A DNA stretch of 60,198 nt, from the NCBI GenBank assembly GCA_018175315.1, contig GCA_018175315.1_4769.1, one strand, 5' to 3'. The notes below the pieces were generated by a model that did not search any database, was not told the DNA's origin, and saw nothing but the letters and a program-made list of their open reading frames with translations. The translations under genes and the position numbers were made by a program. Origin of the DNA: a phage. Positions 893 through 60,168 of the stretch are shown one piece after another (position 1 is the first letter of the stretch; each line of letters starts with the position of its first letter).

Positions 893-2869
893 ATGAATCT
901 CCGCGATTATCAACAGGAAGCAGTCTATAGCGTTTTTCGCTATTTTGACGCTGAAAAGGGTAACGCGGGGAACCCTTTAATCCTGTTACCGACAGGGACA
1001 GGAAAATCGCTCGTTATCGCGGGGTTCCTCGATCTGCTTTATAAATGGTATCCAAACCAACGCGTAATGATGCTAACTCATGTCAAAGAGCTGATTGCGC
1101 AAAACTACGATAAATTAATGAAAGTCTGGCCCGAAGCGCCAGCAGGTATTTACAGCGCGGGTTTGAAGCGTAAAGAAGTCTATAATCTTATTACCTTTGC
1201 AGGGATTGCGTCCGTTGCTAAGCATCCGAAAAAGTTCGGCAAAGTTGATCTTATTTTTGTGGACGAAGCGCATCTTATTAGTCCGCGTGATGCAACAATG
1301 TATAAGAAGTTCTTTGCAGCGTTGCGTGAAGTTAACCCTTACTTAAAAATCATCGGCCTTACTGCTACACCTTATCGACTGGGGTATGGTTCAATTGTCA
1401 AGGAAAACGAAGACGATGATGCGTTATTTGATAAGGTAACATTCGATGCAACTACTCCGGAAGCCTTCAACTGGTTCCTGGAGCAGGGTTATCTTCTTCC
1501 GGTTGTGCCAAAGCGTACTAAGATGGAACTGGACCTCAACGGGGTAGGTAAACGCGGCGGTGAGTTTATCCAGAGTGAGTTGCAAAGTGCGGTAAATCGC
1601 GATGACGCAACACTCCGCGCACTTGAGGAAGCGATTGAATGTGGTGAAGACCGTCAAAGCTGGCTTATATTTTGTTCTGGCATTGAACACGCTAAAGACG
1701 CGTGCGATATGCTGAACGATATGGGTATTAGCTGTGGATGTATTCACTCTAAGCTTGATGCAAAAGAACGTGACGAGATTATTGAAAAATTCAAGCGCGG
1801 TGAATTTCGAGCATTAACTAACAATAACGTCTTAACCACAGGTTTTGATCACCCAATGCTGGACTTAATTATCATGCTCCGCCCAACTGCGTCGGCGGTG
1901 CTATGGGTCCAGATGCTGGGTCGCGGTACGCGTCCGGTGTACGCGGAGGGCTTTGATCTTTCCACGCAGGAGGGGCGCTTACAAGCTATTGCGGCAAGCC
2001 CTAAGCAGAACTGCCTTGTACTGGATTTCAGCGGTAATACGCGGCGTTTAGGCCCTATTAACGACCCTGTTAAGCCCAAGCGCCCTGGCGAAAAAGGTGC
2101 TGGTACTGCTCCGGTTAAAGAATGCGATGTATGCGGGTCGTATAATCATGCATCCGCTCGTTATTGCGGTGGCTTCGCACCAATCCCAATGGACAGCGTT
2201 ACACAGGAACAAGTTCAACAATTATATCTGAAAGGATTTAGACTACGCGGGACGGATTACGTCAAAGAAGGCTTTTGCGGTCATGAGTTTAAGTTCCAGA
2301 CCAAACTCAAGAAAGCTGCAAGTACGGAAGCCCTGATCAAGCAGGATATTCCAATAGTTGAAGACTTTAAAGTTACGCATGTTACTTATGCGAAGCACAC
2401 TAAACGCAATGACAGCTCTAAACCTCCAACAATGAAGGTGACTTATTATTGCGGTAGTAAAATATTCAGCGAATGGGTAGCTCTACTTCACGGTGACTGG
2501 GCAGGTCGTAAAGCGGTTGCATGGTGGAAGAAAAGGACTCATCTTCCTTTACCACAAACTATTGAAGAAGCTCTTGATGTTGCTGCAATGCTCAAAACAC
2601 CGAAATACATCAAAGTTCATACCAATAAGAAATGGCCTGAGATATTGAACTATGATTATGATGGTACGTGTTTCGGTAAGTTTGAAGCACCACAGGACGA
2701 CGAAGCTATTCAGGTTAAAGTATACGGGCAGGATGGAACAACAGAAGGTCCAAGCTATAACGATGATGTGAGCTGGGATGATATTGTTTCACAGAATACG
2801 CAAGGTATAACAGTGAACAATGTGGTTAATCCTGTGCAAGTAGATGATCCGGATTACGTTCCGTTCTAA
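893..2869 (+). CDS. SF2 DEAH-box helicase
   Basis: Walker A LLPTGTGKS, DEAH box (FVDEAHLIS), helicase C-terminal motifs (MLGRGTRP); Cys cluster CDVCGSYNHASARYCGG; ATG 3 nt after upstream stop. Confidence 0.75.
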   Translation: MNLRDYQQEAVYSVFRYFDAEKGNAGNPLILLPTGTGKSLVIAGFLDLLYKWYPNQRVMMLTHVKELIAQNYDKLMKVWPEAPAGIYSAGLKRKEVYNLITFAGIASVAKHPKKFGKVDLIFVDEAHLISPRDATMYKKFFAALREVNPYLKIIGLTATPYRLGYGSIVKENEDDDALFDKVTFDATTPEAFNWFLEQGYLLPVVPKRTKMELDLNGVGKRGGEFIQSELQSAVNRDDATLRALEEAIECGEDRQSWLIFCSGIEHAKDACDMLNDMGISCGCIHSKLDAKERDEIIEKFKRGEFRALTNNNVLTTGFDHPMLDLIIMLRPTASAVLWVQMLGRGTRPVYAEGFDLSTQEGRLQAIAASPKQNCLVLDFSGNTRRLGPINDPVKPKRPGEKGAGTAPVKECDVCGSYNHASARYCGGFAPIPMDSVTQEQVQQLYLKGFRLRGTDYVKEGFCGHEFKFQTKLKKAASTEALIKQDIPIVEDFKVTHVTYAKHTKRNDSSKPPTMKVTYYCGSKIFSEWVALLHGDWAGRKAVAWWKKRTHLPLPQTIEEALDVAAMLKTPKYIKVHTNKKWPEILNYDYDGTCFGKFEAPQDDEAIQVKVYGQDGTTEGPSYNDDVSWDDIVSQNTQGITVNNVVNPVQVDDPDYVPF

Positions 2870-2898
2870 TTGACTTCAACATCTAATGCCCCTACTAT
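2870..2898 (+). promoter_or_regulatory. sigma70-like promoter candidate TTGACT-N17-TACTAT overlapping a hairpin (AATGCCCC/GGGGCATT)
   Basis: Hexamers read directly at 2870-2875 and 2893-2898; lies between helicase stop and next ORF. Confidence 0.3.
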
Positions 2899-2928
2899 TG
2901 GGGCATTACTTATTTATAGGGGATTGCA

Positions 2929-3423
2929 ATGTACGTCCTAATTGATACAGATAAATTTGAACTCTTGGCAAAGCATCCCAATTGGTTGACATTACACCAA
3001 CTTGGAATTATCTGTTGTCCAGAGTCAACACTGGTAACACCAGTAAACGATTTAAAAGATCTTGAAGATGTTGATCTTCAACTGCTTTATATTAACCTGA
3101 CAGAAAACTTAGGAGCTGCACCATATGAACGGGAAATCGTTGAGCGCATTTTGTCTGATTACTTTACGCAACTTCCAGAAACGATCCTGGATCACGCCCA
3201 AATCAGCGCACAAGCCGAATTCTGTGTGGAATACGATATCCAAGGCTTTTGCTCACCTCAAATTGGGCAATACGTTCCGTCAATGGATGAAGGACTTTGG
3301 AAACCTGCCCGTGTCAAATACGATGCTGAACGGGAGGGTGGTATTATTTCCGGTGCCAGGGTCATTTGTGAGCAACCCGCATTGCAAGAAGCATGGACAC
3401 CGGGCAGAGGTGCGAAGAGCTAA
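2929..3423 (+). CDS. hypothetical protein
   Basis: 164-aa ORF with AGGGGA-type RBS; no recognisable motifs. Confidence 0.5.
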   Translation: MYVLIDTDKFELLAKHPNWLTLHQLGIICCPESTLVTPVNDLKDLEDVDLQLLYINLTENLGAAPYEREIVERILSDYFTQLPETILDHAQISAQAEFCVEYDIQGFCSPQIGQYVPSMDEGLWKPARVKYDAEREGGIISGARVICEQPALQEAWTPGRGAKS

Positions 3424-3550
3424 TAAGTTCTAACCCTGATCAAAAATATTTTTAAAAATGTTTATGTAAGGGGTTGCGTGTCACAAAATCCTTTGGTACA
3501 TTTAACCCCGTTGGTAACAAACGAACCCATAATAATTCGGAGTGAAGAAA

Positions 3551-4354
3551 ATGAGTAATATTGAAGATAAGAAAGCCGCTGCTGCCGCAGCCGCTGCTGC
3601 CGCTGCAAAATCTGCTAAGCCTGCAAAGAAAGAAGCTACTGCTAACGACGCAGAAGCTAAAAAAGCCGCTGCCGCTGAAGCTGCACGCGTAGCGAAAGAG
3701 AAAAAAGAAGCAGAGAAAAAAGCTGCCGCTGAAAAGAAACAAGCTGAAATTCGTACTGAAGCGGAAAATAAATTTACCGCTCTTTCCCAGGCAGTTGAAA
3801 CCGTGAAGTTTGCTTTATCCGGTATTACCGATGAAAGCACTGTTGAACAGATTACGGAAGCAGAATCTAAGGGTTCTGAACAGCTGAAGCATTTAAAGAA
3901 TGCTCTGAAAGATCTGAAAGCAGTTGTTAAAAAATCCAAAGGTGAAGATCTGTCCGGTGCAGTAACTGCTGCTCAGAGCATGGTCGACGAACTGGATTCG
4001 TCTATCAAAGGCTTCAAAGACAAGATCCGCGCTGCTAAACAGGCTGAAAAGGCTGCTGAAAAAGCCCGCGAAAAAGCTGAACGTGAAAAAGCGAAAGAAG
4101 CGAACCGTATGCCTGAACAGAATGGTGTTCGTCGTCCGCAACCGGAAACTTCCTGCGGTCGTGCCTGGGCTCTGATGGACCAGATTAGCGCTACGCTGGG
4201 TCAGCCTGCTCCGATCTCTTATGTTCTGAATCTGGCAGGTCGTCACGGTCTGAACGAAGATACTGTTAAAACTCAGTATGCACGTTGGAAGAAGTTTAAT
4301 GGTGTGACTGGTCGCGTACCTATGCCAGTACCGGAAGCCCTGAACGGCTTGTAA
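3551..4354 (+). CDS. Ala/Lys-rich low-complexity protein (histone H1-like composition) with globular C-terminal domain
   Basis: GGAG RBS 8 nt before ATG 3551 (ORF track begins at GTG 3542); poly-Ala run and KKEAEKKAAAEKK-type repeats. Confidence 0.55.
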   Translation: MSNIEDKKAAAAAAAAAAAKSAKPAKKEATANDAEAKKAAAAEAARVAKEKKEAEKKAAAEKKQAEIRTEAENKFTALSQAVETVKFALSGITDESTVEQITEAESKGSEQLKHLKNALKDLKAVVKKSKGEDLSGAVTAAQSMVDELDSSIKGFKDKIRAAKQAEKAAEKAREKAEREKAKEANRMPEQNGVRRPQPETSCGRAWALMDQISATLGQPAPISYVLNLAGRHGLNEDTVKTQYARWKKFNGVTGRVPMPVPEALNGL

Positions 4355-4378
4355 TATCAAAACATATCACGTTATAAT
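4349..4378 (+). promoter_or_regulatory. promoter candidate TTGTAA-N18-TATAAT immediately upstream of terminator hairpin
   Basis: Perfect -10 TATAAT at 4373-4378; -35-like TTGTAA overlaps the stop codon of the upstream gene. Confidence 0.3.
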
Positions 4379-4379
4379 G

Positions 4380-4408
4380 AAAGCGCCCAATGAGGCGCTT
4401 TCTTTTTC
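4380..4408 (+). terminator. rho-independent terminator
   Basis: Stem AAGCGCC / GGCGCTT with loop CAATGA followed by TCTTTTT. Confidence 0.6.
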
Positions 4409-4423
4409 ACTAGAGGATTTAAG

Positions 4424-5131
4424 ATGAATATTAATCAACAAGCTCCCGAGTCCCGTTCTAAAGAAAACGATATGTATTTAGACGTGCATTCGGTATTCTC
4501 TACCATTCAGGGTGAAGGTCCATTCTGCGGCCAACCTGCTGTATTTGTGCGTCTTGCTGGGTGCAACCTGCAATGTCCTGGCTGTGATACGGATTATACT
4601 GTTGGTCGTAGTCTTTATCATATTGTCGATATTATGCGTTTAATCGAAAGCCGTAAGCTGGAATCGGGCAATAGCACCTCACTTGTGGTTATCACTGGGG
4701 GTGAACCGTTCCGTCAGCAAATTAACCCGTTTATTGAACAACTGTTATCGCGCGGCTATTTGGTGCAAATTGAAACTAATGGGTCTATGCCTTTACCTAA
4801 GAACTTTTCCCAGTTACCTGTAATTGTATGTAGTCCCAAGACCTCAAAGATTCATCCTTCTGTGCTGCGCCGCGCTAATGCATTTAAATATGTACTTAAA
4901 GCGTGCTGTGTAAACGTGGAAGATGGTTTACCTCTTCAAGCATTAGATCATCAAGCTACGCCATTTATCGCTAGACCTCCGAAGGGTTTCAAGGGTAAGA
5001 TATATTTACAGCCAATGGACGAGCAGGATGAAGACCTTAACCACAGTAATATCCAAGCCGTTGTCCAAAGCTGTATGAAACACGGTTACACGTTGCAGCT
5101 TCAGGTTCACAAATATATCGGAGTGGAATAA
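4424..5131 (+). CDS. queE: 7-carboxy-7-deazaguanine synthase QueE (radical SAM)
   Basis: Radical-SAM CxxxCxxC motif (CNLQCPGC) near N-terminus; GAGG RBS; sits in operon with queC/queD/folE. Confidence 0.85.
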   Translation: MNINQQAPESRSKENDMYLDVHSVFSTIQGEGPFCGQPAVFVRLAGCNLQCPGCDTDYTVGRSLYHIVDIMRLIESRKLESGNSTSLVVITGGEPFRQQINPFIEQLLSRGYLVQIETNGSMPLPKNFSQLPVIVCSPKTSKIHPSVLRRANAFKYVLKACCVNVEDGLPLQALDHQATPFIARPPKGFKGKIYLQPMDEQDEDLNHSNIQAVVQSCMKHGYTLQLQVHKYIGVE

Positions 5132-8653: not shown

Positions 8654-9112
8654 ATGCCAAGGGTCTATACTAAAAAGCCGATGTCCGAAAGACTAAGCAA
8701 ATACGTTATAGACCCTTCTACTGGTTGCTGGAACTGGACTGGTAGTAAGGATAAAGACGGTTACGGTAGAATGATTAGTGGTTCCAAAGGTGAACGAATT
8801 TTTAGTTTTGCGCATCGCGAGAGCTATAAACTGTACAAAGGAGAAATTGGTTTACCTGATTCCGCTACAGGGTGCGTTCTGCATACATGTGATAATCCGT
8901 CTTGCATTAACCCAGATCATTTATATTTAGGAGATCAAAAACAAAACGGGTTGGATAAGAAAGTTAGAGGGAGGGCAAGGACACGTCCACGGTTTGGGAA
9001 AGATAACCCAATGTATCAAAAATATGGTGAACTGAATCCAATGTACGGGAAACATCATACAGAGGAAACCAAACGTAAAATTAGCGAAACTAAGAAAGCT
9101 AATTTTAAATAA
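8654..9112 (+). CDS. HNH homing endonuclease
   Basis: HNH_3-type pattern (GCWNWTGSKDKDGYGRM ... HRESYKLYKG ... CDNPSCINPDHLYLGDQKQN); inserted between folE and dpdA. Confidence 0.7.
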   Translation: MPRVYTKKPMSERLSKYVIDPSTGCWNWTGSKDKDGYGRMISGSKGERIFSFAHRESYKLYKGEIGLPDSATGCVLHTCDNPSCINPDHLYLGDQKQNGLDKKVRGRARTRPRFGKDNPMYQKYGELNPMYGKHHTEETKRKISETKKANFK

Positions 9113-9130
9113 TAGATAGCTTTACAGATC

Positions 9131-9166
9131 AAGCCCATATCGGTCATAATACTGGTATGGGCTTTT
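9131..9166 (+). terminator. terminator-like hairpin with T-run (weak)
   Basis: AAGCCCATA ... TATGGGCTT with 16-nt loop followed by TTTTT, between HNH and dpdA. Confidence 0.3.
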
Positions 9167-9191
9167 TAGTCATTGGAGGTTTATTTAAGAT

Positions 9192-16369: not shown

Positions 16370-17077
16370 TTAGCAGCAGCCCGTCGGAGGAGTCGGAGGA
16401 GTTGGCAGTTTAAAGTTAACTAACTGCTCAACCTGATTGATCTTACAGGTAAGACCAGCCGTCTGCGCCAACTGAGAGTTTGCAAAGCGAGCTTCCTGCA
16501 ACTGGGACTTCAGGTCACAGATCAGAACTGCTTGCGCCTGTGCGTGCTGGTCACGGATCAGCGCACGGGTAGCTTCAGCTTGACGCTCGATGTTCAGGTT
16601 GGTTTCGCAGCAACACTTCTGAGCTTCTAACTGAGCCTGGAAGGAGCGGGTAATGTTAGCTGCTTCGTTGTTACACAGAGCCGCGAGCACTTGGCTTGTG
16701 CCGCTCTGGATCTGCGTGTTCAGACCAGCAAAACCCTGAACGGAAGCCAGCATGTTTTGAGTGTTCTGCTGAGTAATACCGTTATAAGTAGAAGCAGCGG
16801 AGCGCTCAACAGTCAGGTTAGTACCGTTCTGCCCCTGAATGGTCTGAAGAGTACCGTTGTTGATAGCTTGCAGAATTGCGTTGGTGTCAACAGAAGCCTG
16901 CACTTCCACCGGACCAGCGAAGTTACCGCGACCACCCCAACCACCATTGCCGCCCCAACCATTACCGATCCAGGAACCAATTAAGCCACCGATCGCGCCG
17001 CCGATACCAGCCGCACCAGCTTCACCACCGAAACCGTCGCCACCAAGATTAGTAGGTAAAAGAGTCATGTCAGACAT
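16370..17077 (-). CDS. Gly-rich protein (Gly-rich N-terminus, Q/N/T-rich middle, Cys-rich C-terminus)
   Basis: GGAG RBS before ATG at 17077 (ORF track begins at an upstream alternative start 17206); GGDGFGGEAGAAGIGGAIGG...GNGWGGNGGWGG; ends PTPPTPPTGCC. Confidence 0.55.
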   Translation of the reverse strand: MSDMTLLPTNLGGDGFGGEAGAAGIGGAIGGLIGSWIGNGWGGNGGWGGRGNFAGPVEVQASVDTNAILQAINNGTLQTIQGQNGTNLTVERSAASTYNGITQQNTQNMLASVQGFAGLNTQIQSGTSQVLAALCNNEAANITRSFQAQLEAQKCCCETNLNIERQAEATRALIRDQHAQAQAVLICDLKSQLQEARFANSQLAQTAGLTCKINQVEQLVNFKLPTPPTPPTGCC

Positions 17078-17206
17078 AGGAAAATCTCCATATATGGATT
17101 TGTTAAGCGGATGTAACCAACTGGTTACGAAGTAAAGCATACCCCTTAACATGCTTTTTACAATGATCCAAATGTAAAGATTTTGTAAATTGGGATTGAC
17201 AGTCAA

Positions 17207-46974: not shown

Positions 46975-47586
46975 ATGTCTAAAGTAACTCACCGCGAACA
47001 GGACAAAATGCGTTACACCATGAAAACGAATGCACGCCGCGCCCTTAAGACCCGTTGGGGCCAGGTTGCACGCGATGCACACGAGCAGTTAATCCATCAG
47101 GACGAGATCGGTTTTTACATCGTCGAGAAGGAAGTCCTTCAGGTACTGCGCGACCATAAAAAAGCGCAACAACCGGAGCAGAAAGTCCCGGCACCAACCG
47201 CCGCGCCAGCTGCCAGCGTCTCGGTACTGCGCCCGATGGTAAATCCGGAAATCGTCAAAAGCTGCCTCGAAGCTTTGGAGCAGGAGGAAGAGAAAGATAT
47301 GAAACACGCAAAAGCTGCCACGCAGGTTTCTGAAATCAAAATTGAAGAGCCAAAAGCTGCCGCGCCAAAACAGGATGCAAAAGCTGCTCGCTGTGATTTC
47401 AAAAATGGCGCTCGCAAGCCTCTGAAAGGAAAAACTGCCGAAGTGTGGGCAATGGGCGACAAACTTTTAGCCGAACTGGGCCGCACGCCGGAGCTGAAAG
47501 AGATGAAAGCTGCAATGCCTTCTTACAACGGGACAACGGTTGCCATTCAGTTCTACGCTTGGAGAACTTATCATGGACTTAAATAA
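46975..47586 (+). CDS. hypothetical protein
   Basis: AAAGGAG RBS before ATG 46975; 203 aa, charged and Ala/Pro-rich. Confidence 0.55.
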   Translation: MSKVTHREQDKMRYTMKTNARRALKTRWGQVARDAHEQLIHQDEIGFYIVEKEVLQVLRDHKKAQQPEQKVPAPTAAPAASVSVLRPMVNPEIVKSCLEALEQEEEKDMKHAKAATQVSEIKIEEPKAAAPKQDAKAARCDFKNGARKPLKGKTAEVWAMGDKLLAELGRTPELKEMKAAMPSYNGTTVAIQFYAWRTYHGLK

Positions 47587-48582: not shown

Positions 48583-49250
48583 CAATAATTTATTCCATTA
48601 TTCCAATTATTCCGGAATCTGGAATAATACTGTATATCCATACACCATATTCCATTAACAATCCTGTCACGAATTGTATTCTTTCACTTTTTGTGAGTTT
48701 TGTGATTTTTTGTAGCAGACCTTGCGAACGTCAACTAATACCAATAGGTACTATATACATTACTAATAAAACCTTATTTTATATATATTTATGGTATTAA
48801 TTATTAACTTTTAGTTTCTATCCATTTTTAGTCTGTTGACTGAAAGTTTTAGGTTTTTGCGCTCCAGAGTACCGATTCCATTATTCCATCAAGTAGGAAT
48901 AATTTATTCCACTTCCATCATTTGGATTTTTACCCATTCCATTCACTATTCATTTAGTATCTATCCTATTGATTTATATACGTTTTTTACTAACAGTCGG
49001 GATTTGGGTGTTAGGGTAAAAAATGCGTTTTACCCCAAAACGCAAAAACTTACTGCACCAACTTATTGTTTTTATTAAAGTTTTTAGCAACAGTGGCACC
49101 ACAAAACTTCGCAAAACTTCGCAAAACTCACAAAACTTTCCGTCACATTGTGCAAACTGCGGAGCACCAACTATTCCTACCCAAAACTTTCCATCACATG
49201 TGGTTATATATTAACAATCCGCTCACATCATAACTTCAGGTGGAATAATT
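48583..49250. repeat. iteron-like repeat region (GGAATAAT / ATTATTCC family; CAAAACTT tandem repeats; AT-rich core)
   Basis: TTATTCC at 48590, 48598, 48607, 48881, 48904; GGAATAAT at 48621, 48896, 49242; CAAAACT at 49102, 49112, 49122, 49131, 49182; AT-rich 48741-48830; no ORF with RBS. Confidence 0.5.
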
Positions 49251-59229: not shown

Positions 59230-60116
59230 TGACTATGCCAACTAATTTCCACTTTGACGCGAGCAGCTATCAAGCACCTTCTTACGGCGCATTGCCGAAA
59301 GGTTGGTATAAAGCAGTAATTGAAGCATCTGAATTTAAACCGACCAAAAATGGCGGTATGGCGATCCAGGTAACGTTTAGCATCATTGACGGTTTTGCTA
59401 AAGGTCGTAAAATCTTCGCTCGTTACAACGTTATCAACGACAACGAAGACACTGTGCGTATCGCATACGAGCAACTGGGCGCGCTTTCCCATGCGGTTGG
59501 CGTAATTCGCTGGGATACTCCTGCTCAACTGCATAACATTCCGCTGAACCTGCGTCTGAAAGTTCGTTCTCAGGAAGGTTATGAAGACAGCAACGAGCCT
59601 AACGGTTATGCTAACATCAACGATCCGGTTAAGTATGCAGAAAAAGAAGCAGGTACTCCAGCAATGGGTGCTCAAGCGGCAGTAGCTAACCCGTTCGGTG
59701 CAGGTGCGCCAGCACAGCAGCCAGCTTTCCCGGGCGCAGCACCTCAGCAACCAGCAGCTAACCCGTTTGCACAGCAACAGCAAGCGCCTGTACAGCAGCA
59801 AGCTCCGGCGCAGCAGCCGCAAGTTCAGCAGCCTGTGCAGCAGCAACCAGCACCGCAGCAGGGCGCCGCAGCACAACCGTGGCAGAATGCAGCACCGCAA
59901 CCGTGGGATAACCCTGCTCAAAATGCAGCACCGCAGCAGCCAGTTCAACAGGCTCCGGTAGAGCAACCAGCAGCACCGCAACAAGCTGTTCAGCAGCCGT
60001 GGGCGCAGCAGGTAGCACAGCCTGGTCAGGCAGCAGCGCCAGCGCAGCAAGCGCAACCACAGCAGCAAGCTGAACCGCATCCAGCACAATCCGCAGTTCC
60101 GCCGTGGCAGCAGTAA
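59229..60116 (+). CDS. putative ssDNA-binding protein with Q/P/A-rich low-complexity C-terminal half
   Basis: Globular N-terminal approx 150 aa then approx 140 aa of PQQ/AQQ repeats; TAATG coupling with upstream ATPase; function inferred from context. Confidence 0.4.
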   Translation: MTMPTNFHFDASSYQAPSYGALPKGWYKAVIEASEFKPTKNGGMAIQVTFSIIDGFAKGRKIFARYNVINDNEDTVRIAYEQLGALSHAVGVIRWDTPAQLHNIPLNLRLKVRSQEGYEDSNEPNGYANINDPVKYAEKEAGTPAMGAQAAVANPFGAGAPAQQPAFPGAAPQQPAANPFAQQQQAPVQQQAPAQQPQVQQPVQQQPAPQQGAAAQPWQNAAPQPWDNPAQNAAPQQPVQQAPVEQPAAPQQAVQQPWAQQVAQPGQAAAPAQQAQPQQQAEPHPAQSAVPPWQQ

Positions 60117-60141
60117 GATAACCCTCCTTTGTAGCATTCAT

Positions 60142-60168
60142 AAGCCGTCGAAAGACGGCTTATTTTCT
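60142..60168 (+). terminator. rho-independent terminator
   Basis: AAGCCGTC-GAAA-GACGGCTT followed by ATTTTCT. Confidence 0.6.

Follow-up and report, generated by a model that had tools for sequence, protein, structure and literature searches.

A phage gene between the helicase and queE genes encodes a predicted helix-turn-helix-like domain within a replication and deazaguanine-modification module

We analyzed a 60,198-nucleotide stretch of phage DNA (NCBI GenBank assembly GCA_018175315.1, contig GCA_018175315.1_4769.1; hereafter the window), concentrating on an open reading frame (ORF) at positions 3551-4354, which encodes a protein of 267 amino acids (ATG at 3551, TAA at 4352-4354). This ORF, and the features described below unless noted otherwise, lie on the + strand. 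Positions 3300-4600 share 99.5% identity with Escherichia phage Skure and 98-99% with CAjan, Seurat and the SLUR phages, which are Seuratvirus members of the Queuovirinae, and the Seuratvirus records (Skure, CAjan, Seurat and others) match the gene itself at 97-99.5% DNA identity. These relatives are lytic siphophages with 7-deazaguanine in their DNA, and CAjan has dPreQ0 (PMC6884629). The first 13 kb of the window encode, in order, an exonuclease, a helicase, a 164-residue ORF, gene 3551-4354, queE, small ORFs, queC, a yhhQ-like transporter, queD, folE, an inserted ORF, dpdA, a sliding clamp and a family-B polymerase. The gene is thus placed in a replication and modification module, and the structural genes are on the opposite strand.

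Gene 3551-4354 is real. Most differences from two relatives fall at third codon positions (69 of 94 and 77 of 113), a pattern that points to purifying selection on the + frame and supports the strand assigned in the initial annotation of this DNA; the opposite-strand ORFs at 3502-3939 and 3893-4360 are shadows of the gene. The product matches the PHROG 11298 profile with E = 1e-121 (residues 16-267 against profile positions 1-260 of 273), and its homologs are found under the labels PHROG 11298 and PHROG 18634 (function not assigned), CPT_Seurat44, which is this same gene in phage Seurat, and Vid5 ORF42. All known members of the two PHROG families are uncharacterized. The ORF is already present in dozens of public phage genomes, as a "hypothetical protein" or under artefactual names, and the public cluster names for the family are likewise all either "hypothetical" or compositional artefacts. 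For instance, the CAjan homolog is recorded as a "transcriptional activator FtrA domain-containing protein". We rejected an FtrA/AraC-type activator, the name given in several public records, because neither of the expected domains was detected: no AraC-type HTH_18 or DJ-1/PfpI-like domain matched in Pfam or NCBIfam even at E <= 1. The names "FtrA", "plectin", "outer capsid" and "TolA-like" are compositional artefacts that lack domain support, and scans of the whole protein, its C-terminal domain and the upstream ORF against Pfam, NCBIfam and PADLOC returned only coiled-coil or compositional noise. Literature searches by accession, locus tag and PHROG identifier found no paper on the gene or family, and the papers on Seuratvirus, CAjan, Iggy, R7M and Vid5 contain no statement on the function of the protein.

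The protein can be divided into three parts. An AlphaFold2 (AF2) model built from 121 homologs, with a mean predicted local distance difference test (pLDDT) score of 85.7, places long helices at residues 32-90, 98-127 and 135-184, followed by a beta-hairpin at 189-194 and shorter helices at 201-216, 222-231 and 236-249. Residues 1-30 (3551-3640; pLDDT 49-69) form a low-complexity N-terminus in which residues 9-19 are 11 consecutive alanines. This run had been noted in the initial annotation, as had the repeats in the product, which are of the KKAAAAE type and are accompanied by direct repeats in the DNA at 3562-3589, 3652-3679 and 3706-3733. In the family alignment, the poly-Ala N-terminus is limited to the closest, Seuratvirus-type relatives. 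Residues 31-186 (3641-4108; pLDDT 79-96) are the Ala/Glu/Lys-rich long helices. This region differs in length and sequence across the family, its only matches were to generic three-helix bundles and ATP-synthase-b-like stalks, and it can be described as a generic three-helix-bundle or stalk-like region. Profile searches of PDB sequences gave eS26 (E = 0.47), with ATP synthase b appearing through composition, and Foldseek comparison of the full-length model with the PDB gave nothing at E < 0.3.

Composition had led the initial annotation to call the protein histone-H1-like, with a nucleic-acid-binding or nucleoid-associated role. Residues 1-75 are indeed rich in Ala (40%) and Lys (21%), with 3% Arg, but they also contain 15% Glu and 3% Asp, leaving a net charge of +5; the whole protein has a net charge of +10 and a pI of 9.4. 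Histone H1, AlgP and Hc1 are recognized by a Lys-rich, acid-poor composition of high net positive charge and by disordered repeats that form the conserved part. Here the Ala/Lys region is predicted as confident helices (pLDDT about 80-96, extending over residues 31-184) instead of a basic disordered tail, the repeats are the least conserved part, and no histone or nucleoid-protein relative was found in the profile-library and PDB sequence searches. The histone-H1 label is therefore not retained, whereas the unusual composition is real and a nucleic-acid-binding, possibly abundant architectural role is plausible in view of the helix-turn-helix (HTH) signature, conserved basic arms and top-ranking codon adaptation described below.

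The third part, residues 187-262 (4109-4336), was delimited by alignment, the AF2 model and homolog searches and confirms the globular C-terminal domain proposed earlier. In the model, about 75 residues form a beta-hairpin arm (PEQNGVRRPxP), the three shorter helices and a GxTGRV tail, with a pLDDT of about 88-90 in the core. The family consensus is MPEQNGVRRPKPxTxCGxAWALxDxxSxxLGQPxPIxxxLxxAxxxGLNExNVKTEYARWKKFNGxTGRV, and the invariant residues (P188, N191, P196, W206, Y243, W246, G254 and R255) include positions in the hairpin arm, helix 3 and the GR tail. Helices 2 and 3 are joined through an HTH signature, A229-x3-G233-x5-V239, which appears in the alignment as the family consensus A-x3-G-L-N-x3-V; within this tri-helical core, A229, G233 and V239 stand in register at the Ala 5, Gly 9 and hydrophobic 15 positions of the classical motif. 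The conserved basic arms QNGxRRPxP and GxTGR flank the HTH module, giving about seven conserved basic residues in the arms and helix 3, and the domain has a net charge of +3. No Pfam, NCBIfam or PDB relative of the domain was detected, and its model found nothing in the PDB at E < 0.3 with Foldseek. Nonetheless, the weak matches below this level were mostly HTH or winged-helix DNA binders, among them sigma region 4, LexA, the KAT6A and SelB winged helices and MntR. Sequence and model together thus describe a small HTH-like domain family that is new to Pfam and the PDB.

Homologs fall into two groups. Full-length proteins of about 250-295 residues are found in Seuratvirus, Nonagvirus, Vid5 and similar phages, whereas shorter proteins of 160-220 residues share only the last ~75 residues, at 49-68% identity, the remainder being unalignable. 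In an exhaustive HMMER search, 968 clusters at 50% identity carried the domain at E <= 1e-3, and the contigs on which it was seen are all from lytic phages. The domain can stand by itself, be repeated two or three times in tandem, precede or follow an Ala/Glu/Lys helix, or be fused behind a homolog of the ORF upstream of the gene (PHROG 7864). Its occurrence in one to three copies and on either side of the charged helix indicates that the domain is the functional module. A Pfam scan of 141 diverse family members revealed no informative fusion partners, the domain being joined only to the charged helix or the PHROG 7864 N-domain, and most family members carry a short conserved N-terminal motif, (E/D)-K/L-T-x-E-Q-[IL]-A-A-E.

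We also investigated the position of the gene among relatives. Of 105 loci, 101 encode the domain on the queE strand and upstream of that gene, 99 of them within 600 nt, and in the same 101 loci the gene is held in an exonuclease-helicase...queE-queC-queD-folE-dpdA-clamp-polB module. The order exonuclease, helicase, gene, queE was present in all 80 IMG/VR loci found by the domain profile, where queC, folE, dpdA, the clamp and the polymerase follow queE up to the contig ends, and in seven of eight loci found with a three-domain variant; a scan of viral contigs with a two-domain variant (P0137) gave no match. The order is also kept in Stenotrophomonas phage Bhz54 (42 kb), Rhizobium phage RHEph04 (53 kb) and Achromobacter phage ART (95 kb). 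The exceptions among the 105 loci were two contigs that end early, Synechococcus phage Ssp-JY38, in which domain copies follow the polymerase and the que cluster is still in the genome, and a 7-kb contig (L091; IMGVR_UViG_3300045411_000117) from a different-looking phage. In this last contig, three consecutive small paralogs, each ending in the C-terminal domain, lie at 2072-3695, directly upstream of apparent small and large terminase genes and with no queE in view, which indicates that the domain is not strictly tied to the que cluster. One genome from each of 185,579 bacterial and archaeal species yielded just six matches, all on metagenome-assembled contigs, four of them about 56-57 kb long, which is the size of these phage genomes. 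The family thus belongs to a lytic phage lineage. From its sequence context, the gene appears to be a universal, syntenic member of the replication and deazaguanine module. The initial annotation had set it directly upstream of the modification operon, and this position is conserved in 99 of 105 loci; by design, however, the gene would not be part of the queE operon transcript, because a terminator separates the two and the gene has its own conserved promoter.

As judged from sequence, this gene has the strongest expression signals in the genome. A predicted sigma70-type promoter at 3474-3502 consists of a -35 hexamer TTGCGT (3474-3479), a 17-nt spacer, an extended -10 TGG (3494-3496) and a -10 hexamer TACATT (3497-3502). 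In an alignment of the upstream regions of eight phages of divergent genera, which are otherwise hardly alignable, the pattern TTGC, 17-nt spacer, TGn-TAnnTT recurs, and neither TTGC nor, within the -10, T..TT ever varies. A TGn is found before the -10 in the window as well as in L008, L009, L010, L013, L017 and L012 (Vid5), and the Nonagvirus locus L028 has TTGCAT-17-TATAGT. Its hexamers, its spacing within the 16-18 nt range and its conservation are those of a sigma70 site, and we regard 3474-3502 as a predicted, conserved extended -10 promoter dedicated to gene 3551-4354. Directly upstream of the -35 lies a 45-nt A/T-rich imperfect palindrome (AACCCTGATCAAAAATATTTTTAAAAATGTTTATGTAAGGGGTT, 3431-3475) containing inverted repeats, which could be an UP-element-like stretch or a site for a regulator or bending protein. 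A ribosome-binding site, GGAG, is located at 3539-3542, 8 nt before the ATG, and is annotated at the matching position in phage Seurat.

The codon adaptation index (CAI) of the gene, for which we used Sharp and Li's E. coli weights, is 0.562, which ranks first among the 83 ORFs of the window (major head protein, 0.557; median, 0.293), and each of its three parts taken separately falls in the range 0.52-0.61. The index is validated as a proxy by the scaffold and tail proteins, which likewise have high ranks. Homologs rank first in six of six related 20-kb loci, and in some related loci the homolog outranks the ORF at the position of the DUF669 single-strand-binding-like protein. The third-highest value in the window (0.50) belongs to a 260-residue ORF at 16370-17152 on the - strand (PHROG 9288, function not assigned), which stands next to the major head protein and is another probably abundant protein. 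The Vid5 homolog, ORF42, is not one of the 11 proteins that liquid chromatography-tandem mass spectrometry (LC-MS/MS) identified in virions of that phage (PMC6266253), the one relative on which the absence from particles rests. Gene 3551-4354 therefore looks like a non-structural transcription unit of high output, consisting of one gene between a promoter and a terminator of its own.

The junction with queE is unusual. The initial annotation had pointed to a promoter-like TTGTAA-N18-TATAAT over the stop codon, followed at once by a terminator hairpin, and both features are present and recur in relatives. The promoter-like site for the queE unit (4349-4378; 10 of 12 matches to consensus) comprises TTGTAA at 4349-4354, overlapping the last sense codon TTG and the stop TAA, an 18-nt spacer and TATAAT at 4373-4378, which abuts the terminator stem; it is an annotated promoter in OL960573, where the terminator is annotated as well. 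The intrinsic terminator (4379-4407) is formed by GAAAGCGCC-CAATGA-GGCGCTTTC (4379-4402) and TTTTT (4403-4407), and is annotated in Seurat and SA126VB. Its hairpin has a 9-bp stem with six G-C pairs and a 6-nt loop (-15.6 kcal/mol, z = -4.96; none of 200 shuffled sequences folds as well). This G+C-rich hairpin with its U-run has the form of a Rho-independent terminator, and its position is conserved: a scan reported a hairpin of at least 6 bp at 61 of 65 non-redundant related junctions, mostly with long, G+C-rich stems, and 25 of the 61, mainly from A+T-richer genomes, have a T-rich tail. A -10-like hexamer precedes the stem by 1-4 nt in the window and at least six divergent relatives (L010, L013, L014, L017, L021 and L023), and a -35-like hexamer covers the last codons and stop in the window, L010, L013, L014 and L017. 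Over all 65 junctions, the -10-like element beside the main hairpin is modestly enriched (16 found against 9.0 +/- 2.8 expected). Promoter-like sites overall in the region are at chance level (23 found, 24.0 +/- 5.4 expected).

All three strong + strand terminators in the module (2884-2908, 4379-4402 and 9132-9163) have a sigma70-like -10 beside the stem or in the loop. At 2870-2908, TTGACT-17-TACTAT places its -10 in the loop of hairpin 2884-2908, and at 9121-9171, TTTACA-18-CATAAT places its -10 in the loop of hairpin 9132-9163 (-20.8 kcal/mol, z = -6.97). Given 11 promoter-like sites in 12 kb of the + strand, the probability of this three-out-of-three coincidence by chance was estimated at roughly 1e-4 to 1e-5, without correction for A+T-rich spacers. 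The juxtaposition of terminator and promoter-like site is not random and forms a recurrent cassette in the module.

Rfam searches led us to reject a riboswitch at the junction, for preQ1 or of any other kind: the window contained no gathering-level match, positions 2850-4500 gave only chance-level terminator-like matches, and the queE junctions of 10 related loci gave nothing at E <= 1. In G+C-rich relatives, conserved sequences flank the hairpin in the 45-70 nt before queE, corresponding to 4355-4423 of the window. This motif has a 5′ side CCG-n-AAC-C/T and a 3′ side n-AC-C/T-T..CCCGGAGG, which includes the queE Shine-Dalgarno sequence; the CCCGGAGG side is often a near-palindrome, ACCTCC(C)GGAGGT. 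It was found in L015, L016, L018, L019, L022, L024, L025, L028, L032, L036, L038 and L043-L048, and further in L053-L056, L065, L078, L079, L083 and L085; the window version is degenerate. A strict regular expression for the motif matched 20 times at the junction and six times elsewhere in the 3.3 Mb of searched strand, where about seven matches were expected by chance. RNAalifold found no structure in a MAFFT alignment of the motif, since hairpins of unequal length failed to line up, and the proposed outer helix of the motif pairs better than shuffled sequence but not better than randomly re-partnered sequences, so covariation lends it no support. The motif may be a queE leader or operator.

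The ORF immediately upstream of the gene (2929-3423; 164 residues, PHROG 7864) has no assigned function, a low CAI (0.225) and no match in PDB profile sequence searches. In seven proteins of metagenomic phages (P0111, P0163, P0164, P0169, P0210, P0235 and P0251), a PHROG 7864 homolog, a charged linker and the C-terminal domain are combined in one polypeptide, and in L005 (7195-7923), the segment 7195-7920 is homologous to ORF 2929-3423 with E = 3e-5. Since it is fused with the C-terminal domain elsewhere, a Rosetta-stone link, ORF 2929-3423 is a probable functional partner, and the fusions suggest that the two products work together. Some PHROG 7864 homologs have their own degenerate copy of the C-terminal domain.

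Our leading interpretation, which we hold tentatively, is that gene 3551-4354 encodes an abundant, non-virion protein of the replication and DNA-modification module that would bind DNA or have an architectural function. Host RNA polymerase would make the product from a single-gene transcription unit. The C-terminal HTH domain, with its two basic arms, would be the part that binds nucleic acid, its likeliest target being double-stranded phage DNA, while the long Ala/Glu/Lys helices may serve as a rigid stalk or a region for reach or self-association, with oligomerization as a possible outcome. Many copies could then coat, bridge or organize the DNA during the phase of replication and 7-deazaguanine modification. 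The terminator after the gene would keep its heavy transcription out of queE, and from the promoter-like site transcription would begin anew within the hairpin's 5′ arm, 5-9 nt after TATAAT (4383-4387). Transcripts on the queE side would lack most of this arm, so they could not form the terminator and would escape; in folding calculations, a transcript from 4385 keeps only a 3-bp stem (z = -0.21).

Several points weigh against this interpretation. The module is inherited as a block, so adjacency to queE alone is no proof of a role in modification and the synteny is not independent evidence, and the three paralogs of contig L091 stand beside terminase genes. Net charges of +3 for the domain and +10 for the protein are modest for a DNA-coating protein, and small three-helix bundles also act as protein-protein modules. 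Codon adaptation is only a proxy for abundance. As for the restart of transcription, the queE-side promoter-like site is absent in Nonagvirus L028, and the TATAAT of the window aligns with the conserved nAAC(C/T) of relatives and thus may not be a promoter.

Some of these points would suit a protein-protein adaptor or scaffold, in which the domain docks a replisome component, DpdA or a host factor, the charged helix is a spacer and nucleic acid is not bound. The modest charge fits this well, as do the stalks that Ala/Glu/Lys helices form in proteins such as ATP synthase subunit b; the N-terminal (E/D)-K/L-T-x-E-Q-[IL]-A-A-E motif could be a docking peptide, and the partners of the domain in the 141 members, the charged helix and the PHROG 7864 N-domain, never include a known enzymatic or DNA-binding partner. 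However, the HTH turn signature and the ~seven conserved basic residues fit nucleic-acid binding better, and the weak structural neighbors are mainly DNA binders, leaving the adaptor as an appreciable but minor possibility.

The HTH-like character of the domain also bears on a sequence-specific repressor, activator or antiterminator that acts at the junction and times the queE-dpdA-polymerase units or DNA modification. A conserved hairpin follows the gene in nearly all relatives, with the flanking motifs and the near-palindrome over the queE ribosome-binding site in G+C-rich ones, and some public records name the protein a "transcriptional activator". Such regulators are normally scarce, yet this gene is the most codon-adapted in the genome; the public name comes with no detectable Pfam or NCBIfam domain, the flanking motif is degenerate in the window, and adjacency is the sole link between protein and motif. 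We consider a regulator of this kind unlikely.

A bolder form of the DNA-binding interpretation would make the product a "chromatin" protein of 7-deazaguanine phages, coating preQ0- or archaeosine-modified or replicating DNA, or the DNA-loading partner of DpdA in place of bacterial DpdB, with a new DNA-binding fold class; we view this as quite unlikely. A virion or decoration protein might be suspected from a codon adaptation near that of the major head protein, the single-gene unit with its terminator and the CSP1C record that annotates an "outer capsid protein", but the gene's place in the replication/modification module, the coding of the structural genes on the other strand, the host sigma70-type promoter and the failure to detect Vid5 ORF42 among virion proteins make this very improbable. 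Equally improbable is a basic protein of the histone-H1, AlgP or Hc1 type that condenses DNA through a disordered Lys/Ala tail, since the Ala/Lys content, the 11-Ala run and the AKKA-type repeats that recommend it are offset by the glutamate content and low net charge, the confident helices, the lack of any detected histone-like family and the poor conservation of the low-complexity part, whose poly-Ala run occurs in Seuratvirus-type relatives only.

Other features were noted elsewhere in the window. Between folE and dpdA, whose spacing differs between close relatives, a 152-residue ORF (8654-9112) with its own terminator after it has a HTCDNPSCINPDHL motif and resembles an HNH homing endonuclease in sequence. 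At 59778-60071, a run of imperfect CAGCAAGC/CCGGCGCAGCAG-type direct repeats forms the Gln/Ala/Pro-rich, low-complexity end of an ORF, which is followed by a strong terminator at 60141-60162. Three CAAAAGCTGCC(n)CG copies with spacings of 53 and 42 nt are located at 47256-47365, and near them, at 48689-49135, is an inverted repeat of 24 nt whose arms are 88% complementary and separated by 399 nt. An iteron-like, origin or regulatory function is possible for these repeats.

The main model for 7-deazaguanine DNA modification is provided by the Queuovirinae with their environmental relatives, which include common coliphages in collections such as BASEL. The gene that sequence signals mark as most strongly built for expression is the uncharacterized one that follows the replicative helicase and precedes queE in almost all relatives examined. 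New here are the predicted HTH-like domain family without a Pfam or PDB entry, the apparently universal, syntenic module gene that carries it, and the finding that this gene has what look to be the strongest expression signals in the genome. If the protein coats or organizes phage DNA, it would be a missing component of genome replication, modification and protection and would represent a new DNA-binding domain family; if it is a simple adaptor, it would be of local interest only. In addition, the junction at 4349-4407 is a compact natural terminator overlapped by a promoter-like site, from which transcripts would start inside the hairpin.

Among known systems, only the members of PHROG 11298 and PHROG 18634 are true homologs, and these belong to the same gene family without any difference. 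The histone H1 C-terminal tail, Pseudomonas AlgP and Chlamydia Hc1 have Ala/Lys-rich repeats in common with the window protein, which differs in its 15% Glu, its predicted helices, its low net charge and the conservation of a globular domain instead of the repeats. Plasmid KfrA likewise joins an HTH-type domain of small size to a long charged helix rich in Ala, although the domain order is reversed, the phage protein has no KfrA_N Pfam match, and KfrA belongs to plasmids where this family belongs to a lytic phage. By analogy, the window protein may be built on the plan of H-NS, MvaT and Lsr2, with N-terminal helical self-association and a small C-terminal DNA-binding domain that starts with a beta-hairpin and has a conserved G-R loop, and both would be expected to be highly abundant. 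Its sequence shows no similarity to these proteins and its fold none that is significant; the phage domain has three helices with an HTH turn, and a TGR loop against Q/RGR. The likeness of the proposed protein to phi29 p6, SPO1 TF1, T5 D5 and H-NS would be one of function, not ancestry. The first three, from lytic phages, are very highly expressed, non-virion proteins of the early or middle phase, and they act on the phage DNA while it is replicated and transcribed; their folds are unrelated to that of the window protein. SPO1 TF1, which has an HU-like fold, prefers hydroxymethyluracil DNA, and as here its phage is one whose DNA is modified.

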